IMG/VR virus record: IMGVR_UViG_2563366951_000003
Length of the DNA stretch: 14,096 nucleotides
Direction: 5' to 3' (one strand)
Source: a virus
Lineage: Duplodnaviria > Heunggongvirae > Uroviricota > Caudoviricetes
Both the position numbers and the translations under genes were made by a program. Each line of letters begins with the position of its first letter. The first letter of the stretch is position 1. A model generated the notes under the pieces. That model saw nothing but the letters and a program-made list of their open reading frames with translations, searched no databases and was not told the origin of the DNA. Shown piece after piece: positions 1,532 through 14,096 of the stretch.

Positions 1532-1741
1532 TTAATTTGAATACAATGCAATTCTCGAGGACTGAAGTTTCTCGCAATTAAAATTTATCAATTTTACTTT
1601 CTGCTCTCTGGAAACGCCTGCTTCTTTTTTACCTGAGAGCATTTTTTCGCATTCTGATTTCGTTAGTTTAGATTTTGAATATCTTGTCCAGTTAGTAGGA
1701 GTGCCACCTTCCTTTTCAATAGTGGCGGTAATTTTATACAT
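1532..1741 (-). CDS. rcbA: RcbA/YdaC small protein (69 aa)
   Basis: ORF with GGAGG 6 nt upstream of the ATG at 1741. Translation MYKITATIEKEGG... matches remembered YdaC. Its start overlaps the ralR 3' end by 8 nt. Confidence 0.8.
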   Translation of the reverse strand: MYKITATIEKEGGTPTNWTRYSKSKLTKSECEKMLSGKKEAGVSREQKVKLINFNCEKLQSSRIALYSN

Positions 1742-2794: not shown

Positions 2795-5387
2795 TTGCAT
2801 ATTCCTTAGCCCAGCGGGGCAGTGATAATGTCTTAATAGCTGGCCATTCATCGGTATTCAGGCAGTCAGACAGGGTTCGCAGATTGCGGTGATATTCCTG
2901 TTGACCTGCCAGTTTTGCTTCTTCGCCCATCATGAAAATTTCAACCGGATAACGTCCGCATTCAATAGTTGTGCTGGCAACCAGAAAAACGAAAGTTGGC
3001 TGCACTCCAAACTGTGCTTCATAACCGTCACTGTAGAATGCATCCTGAACGTGATAGCGGTAGTCGTAATAAGCGGTTTTGAATCGTTGAATATCCGCCG
3101 TAGTTTTCACGTCCATGATCCAGTGAAATTCAGGGATAATTTTGTCCGGACGGCACCGACACAAAATTCCTGTTTCAGGATCTTCCCAGTAAATTGATGA
3201 TTCAGCGTGTCCGGCGCTTTCAACAAGCCATTGCCCCAGCGGCAAAGCCATAACGCTTTGATACATGAGTTCAATTTTCCGGCCTTCTTCCGCAGTGATA
3301 ACCGTTTTTCCTGTGCTTGCGCATTCCATCAGAAACGCTTTCTCTTCTTCTTTTCCGGCGTTTGTACGGCGGTTAAATTCAGGTGCTACGATAAAGCGGT
3401 TACTGAATTCTTCCGGTTCAAGTACCCGGCAGTGGAAAGCAGTTCCTAAATCGAGCGTTTTTGTCTTTGTGGTGTCCACGGGGGCATTTTTACGCCACAA
3501 ATATAGTGCCGGAGTATCAGCAATGTCATCGAGCTGAGACTTACTGATACCGGGACCCGCGTGGTAATTCTCATTCGAAATTCCGTAATAAATACCTGGC
3601 TCTATGTCTTCTACGATTACGGGATCTGCGACTTCGCCAGTTTCATCACTGCAATCGCGATGCGGATCGCTGCCAGCATTCTCATTGTGCGGATGTTCAG
3701 CGCCTTCCATTTCCTCCGGATCATTTTCCTTAGCTTCAACCTGACTCTCTTCATCGAATGTTTCCTGGTATGTTGCGTCGCCCATCACCGCACCACAGTC
3801 AGGGCAGTTATCCCCGCCAGTCTGGCCGCAGGCATTGCAGGCTATTTCCGGTTCCTGTTGCACTACTGGCTCAGGTTGATTCATATCTGGGCTGGTTTTT
3901 TCCGTTTCTGGCTGGTTCTGGTACACACAATCGCGAGTCTGGATCCCCTTTACCCATTTCGGATCGTTCGGGTCGCTAATTCCGTCAACAAATTCACCAC
4001 GTGATGCAGCAAGCAATTTATCGTCATCGACAGGATTTTTTGATGGAATGTTTTTCCGGGCTTCATGGAGTTCTGCCCGCAGTTCCTGATATTTCGCATC
4101 AACAGAATTTACCTGTGACTGAGCATCCAGCGGCTGCGTGTCCTGATGATGTTCAGTTGCGTCCGGTTCCATTGTTTCAGCCTCTCCCTGTTCAACTGCC
4201 GTTGTTCCAGATGGTTGCGGTTTTTCTTCATCATCCTGTTTTCCTTCTTCTGTTACTCGCTGCGGCATCGGGGCAGAGGAGCGACCGCAGGCAATATCCA
4301 CGATTTCCGGATCAGGGTTGGCATGATCGGTTTCAGTCAGTACTTTGTTCAGATATTCAGTGACGTGCGCGGGGATGACCTCGATCCCAATTGGTGCTTC
4401 TTTTACGGACGCAACCACGATGGCGCGGGAATAATCCAGCCCGCCAGGCATGGTGATGAATTTGTCGCGGAAAACAGAAAAGGGCGGTTTATTTTCAGCG
4501 ATAATTTCCTCAATGCGTTTAGCGTGTGCCGGATGAAGGTTATAGATGTCCAGATCCATTGAACGGGCCAGTACGCCAGTGGCTACGTCGCGCGCCAGTG
4601 ACGTCAGATCGTGTACGAAACCTTCGCCGCGATCGGTGAGGTTTCCGCCGCCAGCATTAGCACCGGAAGCCGTGCGAGTGATGTGTGAAACACGATTACC
4701 CTTCATCCACTCTTTTGTCAGCAGTCCTCGATCGGTGTAGTCAGCGTTCAGGTATGCTTCGAAAAAAGCAGTTATCAGTCCCAGGTTTGAATTACCAGGA
4801 TTAGGGAAAACTTTGTCAGTGTCACGAACCAGTTTGTGGAGTTCGCGAATTTCCAGCGGGTCGAGCAGGCTGGTTTTGTGGGAAACAGCCAGGGCAGTAA
4901 CAGCCGGTAGTTCTTCAGCCCGAGCAATGTGTAATGCCTGGAGTCCGTCGCGTGAAACGTGCGTTACCGGTTTTTCGCTGCCGTGTTGAGCAAGCCAACG
5001 AATGGGCAGTTCCTGGCCAGAAATTGGGAGTAGCATATTCTCCTCAATCTCAGTCATGTCTTCGCCGTTGACGTTGGTATTGCCTTGATAGTGAGCGTTG
5101 TCTGGTGCTGCTCCCGGTTTTAGTTCCCATGTCATGGAGTCTTTGCTGAGTTGATAGCGTTCACTCCAGGTAAAATCGATCTCACCTTCAGCGGGCAGGT
5201 CATTAACGACAGGAAAATTCGTGGCAACAGCTTTAAAATAGCTGCTCAGTTTTTTACCTGACTTAACGATCAGGTAGTCCAGAGTGGCACAGGTCGATTC
5301 AAAATCGTTGCTTGCCCACAGGACGACGTCAGGTTCACTGGATGATTTTTTCGCTTTCCGTAACAGGAAGAGTGGTTTTGTGCTCAT
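2787..5387 (-). CDS. recE: RecE exonuclease VIII (866 aa)
   Basis: 866-aa ORF, the same length as K-12 RecE. The N-terminal two-thirds is acidic and low-complexity with a CxxC-x7-CxxC motif; the C-terminal third corresponds to the nuclease domain. Directly followed by recT. Confidence 0.93.
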
Positions 5388-7456: not shown

Positions 7457-7489
7457 TCTTATCTCTCCCCTTAACGCCGGGTGGCGGAA

Positions 7490-7645
7490 CTAACTGCTGC
7501 ACTGCAAAATTTGAATCCCGCCGTCATGTTCATACGCCTCGGGCTGGCTACTTAACCCCTTACCACTGCCTGGTAACTCGAAGTATTGCCCTGCGTTCTG
7601 TGGGGCGGGGTGGGTTGGTAGGTATATAATGTACTTTGTGTTCAT
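7490..7645 (-). CDS. ydaF: YdaF small protein (51 aa), function unknown
   Basis: Translation MNTKYIIYLPTHPAPQNAGQYFELPGSGKG... matches remembered YdaF. An adjacent in-frame ATG (7646-7648) is an alternative start. Confidence 0.65.
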   Translation of the reverse strand: MNTKYIIYLPTHPAPQNAGQYFELPGSGKGLSSQPEAYEHDGGIQILQCSS

Positions 7646-7672
7646 CATTGTAAAGTACTTTAAGTACATTTT
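7624..7672. promoter_or_regulatory. Candidate left operator/promoter region between racR and ydaF
   Basis: Contains TATATAAT, the heptamer ATGTACT at 7629-7635 (plus) and 7663-7669 (minus), the perfect palindrome TAAAGTACTTTA at 7651-7662, and TACATTTTATGTA. The same heptamer recurs in the racR/ydaS intergenic region. Confidence 0.45.
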
Positions 7673-7744
7673 ATGTATAAAAAAATGAGACGGGATAAAG
7701 TGAAGCACAAACCCGGAGGGGGACGCTACCGGATTTATGCTGAT

Positions 7745-8164
7745 TTAAGAGGCTTTTTGTTTTTTCTTTCGTGCTAACTCTTCGTAAATTGCATTGTACT
7801 TCTGTTTTTTCTCCTCAAGAGTTTTTAAAAGTTCATCTGTCTCACTGTCAGGGAGCTCGTCCAGAAGGTCAATGATGATTTTTTGTCTTGGATTTAACTC
7901 CTGATAGAAACGTATCTGTCCACTTTCTTCTGTATCCTCTCCCAAAAGATAGGTTGGTGTTGTTCCAATGAGTGTTGCTAATTCCCTTAATTTCTCTCGG
8001 CGAGGAATTGTTTCACCATTAAACCATTTGCTAACCGCTTTTGGTGTTAATTTCATTCGACGGGCAATTTCTGCCTGCCTTCCATGTTGTTCATAACCAG
8101 CGTTTTCACAGGCTAGCGCAAGCCTACTGGCGAACTCTTTACGCGCTTTATCTTCATGAACCAT
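7745..8164 (-). CDS. racR: RacR, cI-like HTH (XRE-family) prophage repressor (139 aa from the first ATG)
   Basis: Helix-turn-helix segment QAEIARRMKLTPKAVSKWFNGETIP. Divergent from ydaS-ydaT. An in-frame stop lies 19 codons upstream of the ATG, so the protein cannot be much longer in this sequence. Confidence 0.85.
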   Translation of the reverse strand: MVHEDKARKEFASRLALACENAGYEQHGRQAEIARRMKLTPKAVSKWFNGETIPRREKLRELATLIGTTPTYLLGEDTEESGQIRFYQELNPRQKIIIDLLDELPDSETDELLKTLEEKKQKYNAIYEELARKKKQKAS

Positions 8165-8243
8165 AAGTTCAATGATATTCGCTCTTGAATGTACTGTCAG
8201 TTCTGTTATGGCATGTACTCAAAGTTCACATTGTGAGGATGAT
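8165..8243. promoter_or_regulatory. Divergent racR / ydaS promoter-operator region (OR-like)
   Basis: 79-bp gap between the divergent starts. ATGTACT direct repeats at 8189-8195 and 8213-8219, plus the small palindrome ACTGTCAGT. Position equals lambda OR between cI and cro. Confidence 0.5.
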
Positions 8244-8498
8244 ATGAACCAGAAAACACTTGAAGATGTAATCAAAACTGTTCGCGTTTCTGTTGTGGCC
8301 GACGTTTGTGGTGTCAGCCAAAGAGCAATCTACAAATGGATGGATAACGGAAAATTGCCTCGCACAGAATATACCGGCGAAACAAATTACGCTGAAAAAA
8401 TCGCTCATGCATCAAACGGATTATTTTCTGCCGATGCAATTTTAACTATTGGCAGAAATAAAACTACTACGAAAAAGCTGATGGGAGTTGATTCATGA
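8244..8498 (+). CDS. ydaS: YdaS, Cro-like HTH protein (84 aa from the SD-preceded ATG)
   Basis: HTH segment VADVCGVSQRAIYKWMDNGKLP. GAGGA precedes the ATG at 8244. In-frame ATGs at 8208 and 8172 are alternative starts but lack an SD. Stop overlaps the ydaT start (ATGA). Confidence 0.8.
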   Translation: MNQKTLEDVIKTVRVSVVADVCGVSQRAIYKWMDNGKLPRTEYTGETNYAEKIAHASNGLFSADAILTIGRNKTTTKKLMGVDS

Positions 8499-8917
8499 AA
8501 ATCAAGCATGAGCACATCGAATCAGTGTTGTTAGCCCTGGCAGCCGAAAAAGGGCAGGCGTGGGTCGCTAACGCAATTACTGAAGAATATCTGCGCCAGG
8601 GGGGCGGCGAATTGCCCCTGGTACCAGGCAAGGACTGGAACAATCAGCAGAATATCTATCATCGTTGGTTGAAAGGTGAAACGAATGCGCAAAGGGAAAA
8701 AATTCAGAAACTGATCCCTGCGGTTCTGGCAATTCTTCCTCGCGAGCTGCGTCACCGACTCTGCATCTTCGATACCCTGGAACGCCGTGCATTACTGGCG
8801 GCACAGGATGCACTGAGTACGGCAATTGATGCGCATGATGATGCAGTCCAGGCCGTTTACCGTAAAGCACATTTCAGCGGCGGCGGTTCTCCTAGCGATT
8901 CTGTCGTAGTGCATTGA
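8495..8917 (+). CDS. ydaT: YdaT, toxic protein of the RacR-controlled module (140 aa)
   Basis: 140-aa ORF translationally coupled to ydaS by a 4-nt overlap. Matches remembered YdaT. Confidence 0.85.
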   Translation: MKIKHEHIESVLLALAAEKGQAWVANAITEEYLRQGGGELPLVPGKDWNNQQNIYHRWLKGETNAQREKIQKLIPAVLAILPRELRHRLCIFDTLERRALLAAQDALSTAIDAHDDAVQAVYRKAHFSGGGSPSDSVVVH

Positions 8918-8930
8918 TTGAAATTAATCG

Positions 8931-8952
8931 TACCGAACTGTTTTGTTCGGTA
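8931..8952 (+). other. Stem-loop TACCGAAC-TGTTTT-GTTCGGTA immediately after the ydaT stop
   Basis: Read directly: 8-bp perfect stem, no clear U-tract afterwards. Lies between ydaT and the ydaU leader palindrome. Confidence 0.3.
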
Positions 8953-8961
8953 TCAGTTAAA

Positions 8962-8982
8962 TGTAACGCTGCGAGCGTTACA
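8962..8982. repeat. Perfect 21-bp palindrome TGTAACGCT-GCG-AGCGTTACA in the ydaU leader
   Basis: Read directly: 9-bp arms are exact reverse complements around a 3-bp spacer. Same core as the repeats inside ydaU. Confidence 0.8.
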
Positions 8983-8994
8983 AGGTGAAAACAA

Positions 8995-9783
8995 ATGGCT
9001 TCAAACTGGATAAAGCTCGAAGTTATTACGCCGGATAAGCCGGAAATATTCAGGCTTGCTGAGATTCTGAATATTGATCCAGATGCCGCATTAGGGAAAG
9101 TCATTCGCTTCTGGGCATGGGCGGATCAACAAATGATAGACGGTAACGCAGAGTGTAACGCTCGCGGCGTTACAAAAAGTGCAATAGATCGCATCACTTT
9201 TATGGCTGGTTTTGCTGATGCGTTAATTCAGGTTGGATGGCTGGTCGAAACTAATGGTGTGTTGTCGCTTCCTAACTTTGAGCGCCATAACGGGAAAAGC
9301 TCTAAAAAACGGGCGGTTACAAACGAGAGAGTAACAAAAATACGAGAACTGAAACGAAAAGGTAACGCTGCCAGCGTTACAAAAACGGATCAAAAAGCGT
9401 TACCAGAGGAAGAGAAAGAGGAAGATATAAATACTTATCTCCCCCTAAATCCCCCTCGCCAAAAACGAGCGTCTAAAAAATTCGAACCGGAGGCTATCGA
9501 GCTGCCTGACTGGTTGCCGGAAACACTCTGGCATGAGTGGGTTCAGTTCAGGCAGGCATTGCGAAAACCGATTCGAACGGAGCAGGGCGCTAACGGGGCG
9601 ATACGGGAGCTGGAAAAATTCCGCCAGCAGGGTTTTTCACCTGAGCAGGTGATTCGACACAGCATCGCCAATGAATACCAGGGCTTGTTCGCGCCAAAAG
9701 GTGTTCGACCTGAGACGTTACTCCGACAGGTTAACACCGTCTCGTTACCGGATAGTGCGATCCCGCCAGGCTTCAGGGGGTAA
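8995..9783 (+). CDS. ydaU: YdaU, putative replication-initiation (O-like) protein (262 aa from ATG)
   Basis: AGGTG Shine-Dalgarno 8 nt upstream of the ATG. Gene sits directly before the DnaC-like ydaV and contains multiple GTAACG palindromic repeats, as lambda O contains its ori iterons. In-frame GTG (8986) or TTG (8914) starts are possible. Confidence 0.8.
   Translation: MASNWIKLEVITPDKPEIFRLAEILNIDPDAALGKVIRFWAWADQQMIDGNAECNARGVTKSAIDRITFMAGFADALIQVGWLVETNGVLSLPNFERHNGKSSKKRAVTNERVTKIRELKRKGNAASVTKTDQKALPEEEKEEDINTYLPLNPPRQKRASKKFEPEAIELPDWLPETLWHEWVQFRQALRKPIRTEQGANGAIRELEKFRQQGFSPEQVIRHSIANEYQGLFAPKGVRPETLLRQVNTVSLPDSAIPPGFRG
9143..9174. repeat. GTAACGC half-site plus palindrome TGTAACGC-TCGCG-GCGTTACA inside ydaU
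   Basis: Read directly: half-site at 9143-9149, palindrome with 8-bp arms at 9154-9174. Confidence 0.75.
9316..9380. repeat. Degenerate GTTAC/GTAAC inverted pair (9316-9335) and palindrome GTAACGCT-GCC-AGCGTTAC (9362-9380) in an A-rich stretch of ydaU; candidate origin iterons
   Basis: Read directly. About eleven GTAACG half-sites cluster between 8960 and 9740. The arrangement resembles lambda ori iterons inside gene O. Confidence 0.6.
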
Positions 9784-12092: not shown

Positions 12093-14096
12093 ATGATTAT
12101 GAGTGAAAATGATACAACCCCAAAGAAGTCTACAAGCCAGATTAACAAAGCGGTATTCTTTACATCTGCTTTGCTAATTTTCCTTCTTGTCGCCTTTGCC
12201 GCCGTATTCCCGGATGTCGCCGACAAAAATTTTAAACTACTTCAGCAACAAATCTTCACGAATGCCAGCTGGTTCTACATACTTGCTGTGGCCCTGATTT
12301 TACTGAGCGTCACGTTCCTTGGACTCTCACGTTACGGTGATATAAAGCTGGGCCCAGACCATGCGCAGCCTGATTTCAGCTACCACTCCTGGTTCGCGAT
12401 GCTTTTTTCGGCAGGGATGGGGATCGGCCTGATGTTCTTTGGCGTTGCCGAACCTGTGATGCATTATCTTTCGCCACCTGTCGGCACTCCAGAGACCGTT
12501 GCGGCAGCGAAGGAAGCCATGCGCCTGACGTTCTTCCACTGGGGTCTGCACGCATGGGCAATTTATGCCATCGTGGCGCTGATTCTGGCCTTTTTCAGTT
12601 ACCGTCACGGTCTGCCTTTAACGCTGCGTTCTGCGCTCTATCCCATTATCGGCGATCGCATTTACGGGCCTATAGGCCACGCGGTTGATATCTTCGCCGT
12701 GATAGGCACTGTCTTTGGCGTTGCAACATCGCTGGGTTACGGTGTATTGCAGGTGAATGCCGGTTTGAACCATCTTTTCGGCGTGCCCATCAATGAAACG
12801 GTACAGGTCATTTTGATCGTGGTCATCACGGGGTTAGCGACGATTTCGGTGGTGTCCGGCCTGGACAAGGGAATACGCATCCTGTCTGAGCTTAATCTGG
12901 GCCTGGCGGTGTTGCTCCTGGCGCTGGTCTTGTGCCTGGGTCCCACTGTGCTTCTGCTGAAGTCATTTGTGGAAAATACGGGTGGTTATCTGTCGGAACT
13001 GGTGAGTAAAACGTTCAACCTTTACGCGTATGAACCCAAGTCGAGCAACTGGCTGGGGGGCTGGACATTATTATACTGGGGATGGTGGCTTTCATGGTCG
13101 CCGTTTGTAGGTATGTTCATTGCACGCGTTTCCCGCGGCAGGACAATTCGTGAGTTCGTGACTGGCGTGTTGTTTGTTCCCGCCGGCTTTACGCTCATGT
13201 GGATGACGGTGTTTGGAAACAGCGCCATCTATCTCATCATGAACCAGGGCGCCACTGACCTCGCCAATACCGTTCAGCAGGATGTTGCGCTTGCCCTGTT
13301 TAATTTCCTGGAGCATTTCCCGTTCTCTTCCGTGCTGTCATTCATTGCAATGGCGATGGTCATCGTCTTCTTTGTAACGTCTGCTGATTCGGGGGCAATG
13401 GTTGTGGATACTCTGGCATCAGGTGGGGTGGCAAACACGCCCGTCTGGCAGCGAATTTTCTGGGCATCGCTCATGGGCGTTGTTGCTATTGCCCTGCTGA
13501 TCGCAGGGGGGCTGAGTGCGTTGCAAACCGTAACGATAGCGAGTGCATTGCCCTTCTCAGTTATCTTATTAATATCCATATACGGACTGTTAAAAGCCCT
13601 GCGTCGGGATTTGACCAAGCGTGAAAGCCTTAGCATGGCGACTATTGCTCCTACGGCTGCACGTAACCCAATTCCCTGGCAGAGAAGGTTACGCAATATC
13701 GCGTATTTGCCGAAGCGCTCTCTTGTGAAACGTTTTATGGACGACATTATCCAACCCGCCATGACGCTGGTTCAGGAGGAACTTAACAAGCAGGGAACGA
13801 TAAGCCACATCAGTGACGCCGCCGAGGATCGTATTCGCCTTGAAGTCGATTTGGGCAACGAGCTGAATTATATATATGAAGTGAGGCTTCGCGGGTATAA
13901 CTCACCGACCTTCGCGCTCGCTGCGCTGGATAATGATGAGCAGCAGAGTGAACAACATCGATATTATCGCGCTGAAGTCTATCTCAAAGAGGGCGGCCAA
14001 AATTATGATGTAATGGGCTGGAATCAGGAACAGCTGATTAATGACATACTGGACCAGTACGAAAAACACCTGCACTTCCTGCATCTGGTTCGTTAA
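12093..14096 (+). CDS. BCCT-family transporter, BetT-like choline/betaine transporter (667 aa, complete)
   Basis: Multiple hydrophobic helices and the BCCT tryptophan-rich signature (GGWTLLYWGWWLSWSPFVGMFIARVSRGRTIREFV). Roughly 170-aa hydrophilic C-terminal extension ending ...ILDQYEKHLHFLHLVR, resembling E. coli BetT. Stop TAA at 14094-14096. ATG at 12099 is an alternative start. Confidence 0.88.
   Translation: MIMSENDTTPKKSTSQINKAVFFTSALLIFLLVAFAAVFPDVADKNFKLLQQQIFTNASWFYILAVALILLSVTFLGLSRYGDIKLGPDHAQPDFSYHSWFAMLFSAGMGIGLMFFGVAEPVMHYLSPPVGTPETVAAAKEAMRLTFFHWGLHAWAIYAIVALILAFFSYRHGLPLTLRSALYPIIGDRIYGPIGHAVDIFAVIGTVFGVATSLGYGVLQVNAGLNHLFGVPINETVQVILIVVITGLATISVVSGLDKGIRILSELNLGLAVLLLALVLCLGPTVLLLKSFVENTGGYLSELVSKTFNLYAYEPKSSNWLGGWTLLYWGWWLSWSPFVGMFIARVSRGRTIREFVTGVLFVPAGFTLMWMTVFGNSAIYLIMNQGATDLANTVQQDVALALFNFLEHFPFSSVLSFIAMAMVIVFFVTSADSGAMVVDTLASGGVANTPVWQRIFWASLMGVVAIALLIAGGLSALQTVTIASALPFSVILLISIYGLLKALRRDLTKRESLSMATIAPTAARNPIPWQRRLRNIAYLPKRSLVKRFMDDIIQPAMTLVQEELNKQGTISHISDAAEDRIRLEVDLGNELNYIYEVRLRGYNSPTFALAALDNDEQQSEQHRYYRAEVYLKEGGQNYDVMGWNQEQLINDILDQYEKHLHFLHLVR

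Follow-up and report, generated by a model that had tools for sequence, protein, structure and literature searches.

The CI/Cro/CII-analogue logic of ydaT-carrying immunity modules has been shown by experiment for the versions in the Escherichia coli K-12 Rac prophage and in CP-933P (PMC8630535, PMC11879457, PMC11014345). In K-12 Rac, the gene order is repressor (racR), divergent Cro-like gene (ydaS) and ydaT, with a 22-nt gap between the last two. The footprinted K-12 YdaT-box, ATGATTCATGAAAATCAA, lies over the ydaT ATG (PMC11879457), and over-expression of YdaT harms the host via rcsA. CP-933P of O157:H7 carries paaR2-(paaA2-parE2)/ydaS-ydaT. Its repressor is short, CI-like and without an S24 domain, its operators are of the GTTTAGTAA type and come in OR and OL sets, and a paaA2-parE2 toxin-antitoxin pair stands behind the repressor. 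The CP-933P repressor mRNA is leaderless, YdaS is Cro-like, and YdaT, footprinted on TTGATT-N6-AATCAA at the ydaS/ydaT junction, activates a PRE-like promoter (PMC8630535, PMC9986795).

Two further systems bear on the present locus. In the lambda cI-cro-cII switch, two operator clusters surround cI, the cI transcript is leaderless, and an activator of the CII type has its site at the cro/cII junction. In phage HK022 (X16093), CI has 235 aa and includes an S24 domain for cleavage and cooperativity. In the parts that align with the window, two oL operators lie 24 bp apart and three oR operators are separated by 33 and 24 bp, and an extra CI operator is reported ~300 bp downstream of OR (PMC8053113).

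Here, we analyzed a stretch of 14,096 nucleotides, which as a whole is called the window. The prophage belongs to E. coli, is Rac-like and defective, and has a control region of the ordinary kind. It shares with K-12 Rac the backbone and integration site (ttcA-intR ... recET, kilR, sieB, ydaF/G), the order of the three control genes and a YdaT-box over the ydaT start. Rac genes flank the control region, as opposed to nun and others in HK022. We are largely confident that the stretch 7626-8917 is the immunity region, controlling lysis and lysogeny, of a truncated lambdoid prophage of the Rac-like kind that sits next to ttcA, and that this region is a mosaic of an HK022-type cassette and ydaT. 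Because HK022-type repressor, Cro and operators occur together with a K-12-type ydaT and a YdaT-box, the prophage is a heteroimmune Rac variant, in which an HK022-type cI/cro cassette is fused to the CII analogue ydaT. The literature on HK022 together with ydaT and on the CP-933R repressor and immunity yielded no study of an HK022-type cassette with ydaT. An NCBI PGAP annotation exists for DNA identical to the window. The sole match in an Rfam scan was the RalA sRNA, far from the immunity region.

Repressor and Cro-like proteins

Direct reading and the ORF listing agreed with the initial annotation that a leftward repressor gene faces a rightward pair of genes (Table 1). However, the names racR and ydaS, which the initial annotation had given to the repressor and to the first rightward gene, were not upheld. 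By BLASTP, the repressor aligned with K-12 RacR across 33 residues only (36% identity, E 1e-4), and the Cro-like protein aligned with K-12 YdaS over 18 residues (E 0.03). Beyond this helix-turn-helix stretch, the K-12 proteins are unrelated to those of the window.

The best relatives of the repressor are HK022-type CI proteins. The repressor matched Pfam HTH_3 (E 1.8e-9) and was 46% identical to residues 3-99 of HK022 CI (E 9e-32), and the recognition-helix segments of the two are near-identical (TPKAVSKWFNGE in the window, TPKAISKWFNGE in HK022 CI). From residue 1 to 73, the Cro-like protein shared 61.6% identity with HK022 Cro (E 2e-24), and it fell into phrog_35 (transcriptional repressor). 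A Pfam scan of this protein gave no match to the YdaS family (PF15943/COG4197) and only a sub-threshold HTH_17, and a PDB search with it returned nothing meaningful. As judged by homology, the repressor and Cro are of the phage HK022 type, and ydaT alone is the K-12 gene.

Unlike HK022 CI and the lambda repressor, the window repressor has no S24 autocleavage/cooperativity domain; the Pfam scan found no PF00717 match in it, and the polypeptide, 139 aa in length, closes with a short helical tail. PF00717 was present in long relatives of the repressor, which align with its N-terminal 55 to 73% only, and was absent from the short ones. An AlphaFold2 model (mean pLDDT of 83) likewise predicts a helical tail in place of the S24 domain. 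Without this domain, the switch should not answer RecA/SOS by autocleavage.

Distribution of the cassette

Among 5426 complete E. coli genomes, the HK022-type cassette occurred in 1049 and the K-12 type in 1089. At least 80% of the cassette was covered in 1047 of the 1049. It was also found, with identical proteins, in the Rac-like phage vB_EcoS-673R7 (37.8 kb), which also has genes for replication and for a Q antiterminator. In phage Tritos, the cassette stands beside another type of YdaT (32% identity) with the YdaT-box kept, and it is present in the ttcA prophage of O157:H7 strain 86-24. An earlier report described ydaT-bearing strains that had “no racR” and whose intergenic region was “lost” (PMC5700373). 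The HK022-type cassette probably explains these strains.

Operators and promoters

We searched the whole window for the 15-bp pattern TGWAC-N5-GTWCA, allowing one mismatch. Six matches were found against a chance expectation of 1.2 (0 of 200 shuffles reached six), and five of them flank the repressor gene. These five agree with the oL and oR sites of HK022 in X16093 in both spacing (24 bp; 33 and 24 bp) and position, with starts at 7630, 7654, 8157, 8190, and 8214 compared to 2201, 2225, 3000, 3033, and 3057. The two systems have the same operator consensus, and one operator, TGAACCATAAGTTCA, is identical to HK022 oR 3000-3014, which also overlaps the start of cI. The OR1-like operator spans the expected pR transcription start, predicted near 8219-8221; the predicted leftward starts are 8164 for the repressor and a position near 7619 for pL. 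We found no counterpart of the extra downstream CI operator of HK022, as no operator match lies beyond 8228. The K-12 Rac immunity region contains no TGWAC-N5-GTWCA sites and has different operator repeats, and the CP-933P operators are also unlike those of the window.

Table 1. Features of the immunity region, in window positions
Feature	Positions	Strand	Description
pL-like promoter	7626..7654	-	TTTACA-17-CATTAT; promoter scan; at the pL -35/-10 position annotated in HK022 X16093
OL-side operator	7630..7644		TGTACTTTGTGTTCA; exact TGWAC-N5-GTWCA; overlaps the pL-like -10; aligns with HK022 oL 2201-2215
Second OL-side operator	7654..7668		AGTACTTTAAGTACA; 1 mismatch; 24 bp from the first; aligns with HK022 oL 2225-2239
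Repressor gene	7745..8164	-	139 aa; HK022-CI-type helix-turn-helix (aa 1-75), linker, C-terminal helical tail
OR3-like operator	8157..8171		TGAACCATAAGTTCA; exact; overlaps the repressor start codon (CAT 8162-8164)
pRM-like promoter	8172..8200	-	CTGACA-17-TATCAT; promoter scan, 10/12 matches
pR-like promoter	8185..8214	+	-35 TTGAAT 8185-8190; -10 TATGGC 8207-8212 (TG before) or TGGCAT 8209-8214
OR2-like operator	8190..8204		TGTACTGTCAGTTCT; 33 bp from OR3; aligns with HK022 oR 3033-3047, same spacing
OR1-like operator	8214..8228		TGTACTCAAAGTTCA; exact; 24 bp from OR2; aligns with HK022 oR 3057-3071, same spacing
Cro-like gene	8244..8498	+	84 aa; SD GAGGA 8235-8239; called ydaS in the initial annotation
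ydaT Shine-Dalgarno	8483..8487	+	GGGAG; direct reading; 7 nt upstream of ATG 8495, within the 3' end of the Cro-like gene
YdaT-box	8488..8505		TTGATTCATGAAAATCAA; perfect palindrome TTGATT-CATGAA-AATCAA; spacer holds the ATGA overlap
ydaT	8495..8917	+	140 aa; CII-analogue transcription activator

The promoter scan yielded two promoters only, pL-like and pRM-like. The pL-like promoter would drive the leftward early operon, comprising ydaG-like, ydaF, kilR, racC, recET, ralR, xis, and int. Seven nt separate the pRM-like -10 from the A of the repressor ATG (8164), with no Shine-Dalgarno sequence; thus, the repressor mRNA is predicted to be leaderless, for which cI and paaR2 set the precedent (PMC8630535). 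The same geometry is seen in the HK022 sequence (CTGATA-17-TATAGT, 7 nt, ATG), where pRM is unannotated in X16093. With its predicted -35 inside OR2, pRM may be activated by the repressor or merely repressed by it. Operator function, transcription starts, and leaderless translation are all predicted here from homology and geometry.

The pR-like promoter appeared in a relaxed scan and aligns with the annotated -35 and -10 of HK022 pR. Its -10 is weak in each register and contains the rare G8210, so that pR is possibly feeble in the window's strain. Position 8210 is an A in phages 673R7 and Tritos, and of 1045 genomes with the region, 940 have the A version exactly and 37 the G version. This minority allele could mean that the locus is a decayed remnant, in which truncation of the prophage and a down-mutation in pR leave the rightward genes silent with or without repressor. 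The source genome does lack late genes, with Rac ending at a DUF977 gene, beyond which lie cargo genes and IS1. G8210 lies in the hexamer aligned with the HK022 pR -10, and in the alternative register, it turns TAGCAT into TGGCAT at the critical second position. However, all three ORFs and all five operators are intact, as are the YdaT-box and the hexamers of pRM and pL, and the coding sequences are the same as in the full-size phage 673R7. A TG extended -10 motif stands ahead of the TATGGC register, G8210 is only a putative down-mutation, and it leaves pL and kilR unaffected. We consider a silent remnant unlikely and retain the reading of an HK022-type immunity region joined to ydaT.

Start of the Cro-like gene

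The plus-strand frame has no stop between 8172 and its TGA at 8496-8498, and it contains ATG codons at 8172, 8208, and 8244. The start had been described as ambiguous among these three, with a Shine-Dalgarno sequence at 8244 only, and the latter point was accurate: GAGGA ends 4 nt before ATG 8244, while direct reading found no purine-rich stretch ahead of 8172 or 8208. The true gene could be the 108-aa frame from 8172, which was chosen by the annotators of Tritos and is open in the window, 673R7, and Tritos, or it could start at 8208. Neither start has a Shine-Dalgarno sequence. In addition, 8172 is part of the divergent pRM -10 and precedes the pR -35, and 8208 is part of the pR -10; therefore, neither would be on the pR transcript. 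ATG 8208 arises from the rare G8210 allele, and this codon is ATA in both phages and in the 940 genomes with the exact A8210 version. The homology with HK022 Cro starts with the Met encoded at 8244, and the HK022 frame is closed by a stop 10 codons upstream of its own start. PGAP also begins the gene at 8244 in the identical DNA. Taken together, homology, promoter position, and the PGAP choice make 8244 the best start of the Cro-like gene, and we regard either upstream start as highly improbable.

ydaT, the YdaT-box, and the overlap with cro

The identification of ydaT in the initial annotation was confirmed. The protein is a true orthologue of K-12 YdaT, with 94% identity over 140 aa, a Pfam PF06254 match above the cut-off (E 6e-11), assignment to phrog_163 (CII-like activator), and relatives 3C4R and 8BT1 in the PDB. 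In the alignment with K-12, the DNA-binding residues H56 and R57 and the oligomerization residues L107 and A110 are kept (residue roles from PMC11879457). YdaT of the CP-933P type is ~30% identical to the K-12 type found in the window (PMC11879457), and its PDB match was weak (E 1.7e-6).

The initial annotation had missed that the ATGA overlap sits in the spacer of the YdaT-box, which is the sole exact match to TTGATT-N6-AATCAA in the window. The box matches the footprinted site of CP-933P exactly and differs by 1 nt from that of K-12. Extra YdaT-box-like sites, as reported for K-12, were sought in the intergenic region, and none were found at up to two mismatches. The placement of the box at the cro/ydaT junction is like that of the CII-type site at the lambda cro/cII junction, and the locus as a whole shares its gene order and general logic with the lambda switch. 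However, lambda CII and the CII analogue of the window have no sequence similarity, and YdaT binds an inverted repeat as a 222-symmetric tetramer, whereas the lambda CII site is a direct TTGC repeat (PMC9986795).

The YdaT-box is a conserved core at the mosaic junction. The HK022-type part appears to run from ~7618 to ~8489 and to comprise OL/pL, the gene for the short repressor of cI type, OR (including pRM and pR), and cro. It would meet ydaT, a Rac gene whose product is the functional counterpart of lambda CII, at the YdaT-box. In HK022, lambda-type cII and pE stand where the window has ydaT and the YdaT-box.

We also searched between the YdaT-box and the repressor gene for a PRE-like leftward promoter and saw weak consensus matches only (TTCGTA-17-AATAGT at 8473..8445 and TTCAGC-17-TATATT at 8396..8368), none of which we claim as a promoter. 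In K-12 Rac, the YdaT-dependent promoter PracR4 lies in the ydaS sequence, which is absent from the window.

Translational coupling had been proposed from the 4-nt overlap of the two rightward genes. The overlap itself is real, with the ATG of ydaT and the TGA of the Cro-like gene forming ATGA at 8495-8498. Such overlaps are a frequent type of junction in phage operons, and other same-strand genes of this prophage overlap as well (recT/recE, rcbA/ralR, and ydaE/kilR), so this one is unremarkable. The predicted RNA fold of 8465-8530 (-14 kcal/mol, z of -1.73) was not significant, as 11 of 200 shuffles were as stable. Of the features of a coupled pair, the locus thus has the overlap of stop and start, but with its own Shine-Dalgarno sequence and no significant structure, ydaT gives no sign of dependence on upstream translation. 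Coupling is therefore possible but not needed. The overlap is also not conserved in ydaS-ydaT modules, as the gap in K-12 shows.

Discussion

From homology and analogy, we propose a model in which the 139-aa repressor occupies the 15-bp operators as a dimer. At OR1 and OR2, the repressor would close pR and keep cro, ydaT, and the replication genes off, and at the two OL sites, it would close pL and keep kilR, recET, and xis-int off. It would be made from the leaderless pRM transcript and probably limit itself through the operator over its start codon. Upon failure of repression, Cro would occupy the same operators and YdaT would be produced from a transcript shared with cro, on which the ATGA overlap would permit coupling. 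Tetramers of YdaT on the YdaT-box could then start leftward transcription and restore the repressor, as PracR4 does in K-12 and PRE in CP-933P.

The initial annotation had described the module as an immunity switch that doubles as an addiction cassette. The first half fits a repressor that is divergent from a Cro-like/CII-like operon. The second half follows the K-12 racR-ydaS-ydaT “toxin-repressor” module, with an essential repressor, YdaS and YdaT as toxins, and self-retention. K-12 racR indeed cannot be deleted unless ydaS-ydaT is removed as well (PMC5700373, PMC5700377), the window YdaT is a close match to the toxic K-12 protein down to its DNA-binding residues, and the cassette is nearly always whole. 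However, the repressor gene and the gene upstream of ydaT in the window are not racR and ydaS; thus, the claim that RacR is needed to silence toxic genes carries over for ydaT, by analogy only for the repressor, and not for ydaS.

The K-12 module itself also behaves otherwise. The entire Rac prophage can be deleted (PMC5700373), excision relieves toxicity (PMC11014345), and harm comes only from selective loss of the repressor. Since an addiction system is defined by killing upon its loss, this reading does not fit. In K-12 there is no protein-protein neutralization, and transcriptional repression alone is enough (PMC5700373). Later K-12 work ascribes the toxicity to YdaT rather than YdaS, which was found not to lower viability (PMC11014345), and CP-933P YdaT is non-toxic (PMC8630535). 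The present view of the field is that YdaS is a Cro analogue and YdaT a CII analogue, not toxins (PMC5917428, PMC8630535, PMC11879457). We believe that an addiction function is quite unlikely, and we favor an immunity switch whose repression is transcriptional. A toxin-antitoxin reading was rejected by analogy with the K-12 counterpart, given its control by transcription only, the deletable prophage, and the rescue of cells by excision (PMC5700373, PMC11014345). No pair like paaA2-parE2 is found in the window, in contrast to CP-933P.

These findings leave the known picture of lambdoid switches unchanged. They do correct one point, namely, that results for K-12 RacR and YdaS are not transferable to Rac-like prophages from gene position alone. 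The same ydaT is preceded by at least two unrelated immunity cassettes, at roughly equal frequencies, and the YdaT-box can be seen as a recombination joint that links immunity cassettes with CII-analogue genes. A more speculative idea, which we hold to be doubtful though worth stating, is that the resident repressor without S24 gives standing immunity or cross-talk towards incoming phages of HK022 immunity and that G8210 is a domesticating promoter-down mutation. If true, around one-fifth of complete E. coli genomes would carry an SOS-blind HK022-type repressor with HK022-type operators in a Rac-like prophage, and G8210 would disarm the harmful cro-ydaT operon while the repressor is kept. The finding makes protection by cryptic Rac remnants against HK022-immunity phages cheaply testable.

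Gene organization and prophage setting

Direct reading and an ORF list bore out the three-gene anatomy of the initial annotation, in which a leftward repressor gene faces a middle gene and ydaT. The ATGA at 8495-8498 combines the ydaT ATG with the preceding middle-gene TGA. Several E. coli strains (e.g., ECONIH4 and ABWA45) have chromosomal DNA 100% identical to the window, which in them is a Rac-like prophage adjoining ttcA, ordered intR, xisR, rcbA, ralR, recT, recE, racC, ydaE, kilR, sieB, ydaF, a small phage gene, repressor/Cro-like/ydaT, and replication genes. In the source genome, the prophage ends after a DUF977 gene, followed by cargo genes and IS1; late genes are absent, so this prophage is defective. 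The cargo genes (12093-14096 and beyond; L003 29099-35349) replace the late region and K-12 trkG and encode a BCCT-family transporter, a DUF2254 protein, a LysR regulator, a gamma-glutamylcyclotransferase, and an MFS transporter, before an IS1 adjoining uspF. Opposite rcbA/ralR, as in K-12, lies a complete RalA, the antitoxin sRNA of the RalR/RalA type I system.

Features of the immunity region and its surroundings, in window coordinates
Feature	Position	Strand	Basis
RalA sRNA	1557-1735	+	Rfam RF02694, 219 bits
Predicted OL sites	7630-7644, 7654-7668		TGWAC-N5-GTWCA
pL-like promoter TTTACA-17-CATTAT	7654..7626	-	Promoter scan; at HK022 pL position
Repressor ORF, 139 aa	7745-8164	-	Direct reading and ORF list
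Predicted OR3-like, OR2, OR1	8157-8171, 8190-8204, 8214-8228		TGWAC-N5-GTWCA
pRM-like promoter CTGACA-17-TATCAT	8200..8172	-	Promoter scan
Middle-gene ORF, open from 8172 to TGA 8496-8498	In-frame ATGs 8172, 8208, 8244	+	Direct reading and ORF list
Middle-gene Shine-Dalgarno GAGGA	8235-8239	+	Ahead of ATG 8244 alone among three ATGs
ydaT Shine-Dalgarno GGGAG	8483-8487	+	7 nt upstream
YdaT-box TTGATTCATGAAAATCAA	8488-8505		Perfect palindrome
ydaT ORF, 140 aa	8495-8917	+	Direct reading and ORF list
YdaT-box-like site TTGATTGAAATTAATCGT	8914-8931		2 mismatches
21-bp palindromes TGTAACGC-N5-GCGTTACA	8962-8982, 9154-9174, 9361-9381		Three copies; chance expectation 0.00
Replication-initiator-like gene	8995-9783		phrog_2509, replication initiation protein

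An HK022-type cassette replaces racR and ydaS

The name ydaT was correct: the protein is 94% identical to K-12 YdaT and matches PF06254, phrog_163 (“CII-like transcriptional activator”), and PDB entries 3C4R and 8BT1. The names racR and ydaS, given to the other two genes, did not hold. The repressor aligned with RacR of K-12 MG1655 Rac over 33 residues only (36% identity, E 1e-4), and its Pfam match is the generic HTH_3. The middle protein aligned with K-12 YdaS over 18 residues (E 0.03) and had no YdaS-family match in Pfam. In tblastn searches of phage genomes, the repressor N terminus (aa 4-102) was 46% identical to phage HK022 CI, and aa 1-73 of the middle protein shared 61.6% identity with HK022 Cro. 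The recognition-helix segment hardly varies (TPKAVSKWFNGE in the window, TPKAISKWFNGE in HK022). By eye and by alignment, DNA identity with K-12 stops near 7617 and returns at 8489, implying exchange of an 870-bp cassette.

In a search for repeats, ATGTACT-N4-GTTC units with 24-bp spacing turned up on either side of the repressor gene. Refined to the palindrome TGWAC-N5-GTWCA with one mismatch allowed, the pattern matched six times in the window versus 1.2 expected by chance (no shuffle gets six), and five of the six are the predicted operators. In the HK022 record X16093, the annotated 15-bp repressor sites lie at oL 2201 and 2225 and oR 3000, 3033, and 3057; spacings (24 bp; 33 then 24 bp) and consensus are identical to those here, and one operator, TGAACCATAAGTTCA, is the same letter for letter and lies over the cI start codon in both. 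The K-12 Rac immunity region, in contrast, has no such sites and carries GCCTAAT-type repeats at two equivalent places.

A promoter scan of the window found two promoter-like sites, both leftward. The pRM-like −10 ends 7 nt ahead of the A in the repressor ATG, the same geometry as in HK022, and the repressor has no Shine-Dalgarno; we therefore predict a leaderless repressor mRNA, as shown for lambda cI and paaR2 of the O157:H7 prophage CP-933P (PMC8630535). A 160-bp stretch (7458-7617) separates the predicted pL start from the first leftward gene and is conserved in K-12 Rac as far as the edge of the cassette. With no convincing ORF inside, it may represent a leader or nut-like region; a 72-aa ORF spanning the promoter (7490-7708) is probably spurious.

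The repressor is short, with 139 aa compared to 235 aa for HK022 CI, and other long relatives carry the S24 peptidase domain PF00717. Salmonella relatives of 138-151 aa are 62-65% identical over their full length and, like the window repressor, diverge from the long forms past about residue 76. In an AlphaFold2 model (mean pLDDT 83), the DNA-binding domain consists of five helices and is followed by a low-confidence linker (78-86) and by helices at 92-103 and 106-138. We infer that the repressor dimerizes through its tail and lacks RecA-stimulated autocleavage.

Just downstream of ydaT we observed a second mosaic exchange. The replication-initiator-like protein shares with K-12 YdaU its C-terminal 124 residues only (81%), and its N-terminal half is unrelated. 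One copy of the 21-bp palindrome, of which K-12 Rac has none, lies between ydaT and this gene and two lie within the N-terminal half; they probably serve as binding sites for the initiator or as an origin, by analogy with lambda O.

The Cro-like gene probably starts at 8244

The initial annotation left three starts for the middle gene and noted that 8244 has a Shine-Dalgarno, which 8172 and 8208 lack. This start is supported on four further counts: PGAP starts the gene there, HK022 Cro homology begins at this Met, the upstream frame in HK022 holds a stop codon, and the other ATGs coincide with promoter elements. Position 8172 lies within the pRM −10, upstream of the pR −35, and 8208 within the hexamer aligning with the HK022 pR −10, so both should be absent from a pR transcript.

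The YdaT-box is a recombination joint

The footprint of CP-933P YdaT is TTGATT-N6-AATCAA, located where ydaS meets ydaT (PMC9986795). The K-12 YdaT footprint, ATGATTCATGAAAATCAA, covers the ydaT ATG, and YdaT activates a reverse promoter, raising racR expression (PMC11879457). The YdaT-box here is the sole exact match in the window, and its spacer, CATGAA, contains the ATGA. Aligning the window, K-12 Rac, the full-size Rac-like phage vB_EcoS-673R7 (673R7), and phage Tritos gave a conserved core, TGATTCATGAAAATCAAGCATGA(G/A)CACATC, left of which K-12 diverges and right of which Tritos diverges. Since Tritos joins the same cassette to a CP-933P/3C4R-type YdaT (32% identity), we conclude that the YdaT-box is a recombination joint between immunity cassettes and CII-analogue genes. 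This joint accounts for the 11-residue Cro-like tail past the HK022 homology and for the ATGA overlap. K-12 has a 22-nt gap instead, so the overlap is not conserved in ydaS-ydaT modules. Translational coupling, as proposed initially, fits the overlap but need not be required: ydaT carries a Shine-Dalgarno of its own and the RNA around the overlap showed no significant structure, making coupling optional.

Since a YdaT tetramer can engage two sites on DNA (PMC9986795), the weak YdaT-box-like site over the ydaT stop codon, ~420 bp away from the main one, may be relevant, but it could equally be chance (4 matches versus 1.5 expected).

Distribution and a variant of the predicted pR

Among complete E. 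coli genomes, the K-12 racR-ydaS segment occurs in 1089 and the HK022-type cassette in 1049, with at least 80% coverage in 1047 of the latter. All three proteins also occur in the ttcA prophage of O157:H7 strain 86-24. The cassette probably explains the few strains reported to have ydaT without racR, their intergenic region “lost” (PMC5700373). Our literature searches found no paper describing an HK022-type short cI/cro cassette with ydaT.

In the aligned immunity region, the window differs from 673R7, whose CI and Cro proteins are identical, at G8210, A8239, and two positions left of the repressor gene; at 8210 and 8239, Tritos agrees with 673R7. A8239 sits in the cro Shine-Dalgarno, where both phages have G. 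G8210 lies between OR2 and OR1, outside both, and changes the predicted pR −10 from TATAGC to TATGGC (or, two bases right, TAGCAT to TGGCAT). It alone creates the ATG at 8208, which is ATA in both phages. Of 5426 complete E. coli genomes, 1045 contained the OR segment (8150-8238), 37 exact to the window and 940 exact to the A8210 version, making G8210 the minority allele. If G8210 weakens pR, this lineage would carry a less dangerous rightward operon.

A probable lambdoid switch

Most likely, the trio is a lambdoid switch. The repressor would bind OR1/OR2 and the OL sites, silencing pR and pL, with its own synthesis limited by the operator over its start, and Cro would compete for the same operators. 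YdaT, made with Cro from pR, would bind the YdaT-box and promote repressor synthesis; for a putative PRE-like promoter we found weak candidates only. Our results show the homologies, the operator layout, and the YdaT-box; binding, transcription starts, leaderless translation, and the PRE-like promoter are predictions. Jobling's letter had already argued that YdaS and YdaT are Cro and CII analogues (PMC5917428). The trio had also been read as an addiction cassette, and the K-12 evidence is against this: K-12 tolerates deletion of the whole Rac prophage, its excision relieves toxicity (PMC5700373, PMC11014345), and control acts solely at transcription. In later work YdaS did not lower viability (PMC11014345), and CP-933P YdaT is non-toxic (PMC8630535). 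YdaT here keeps its DNA-binding residues, and by analogy with K-12, repressor loss alone may be harmful, through YdaT and kilR. Thus, the anatomy of the initial annotation stands without its two gene identities and addiction reading: the element is of an ordinary, well-understood kind, an uncharacterized HK022-type short cI/cro cassette coupled to ydaT.
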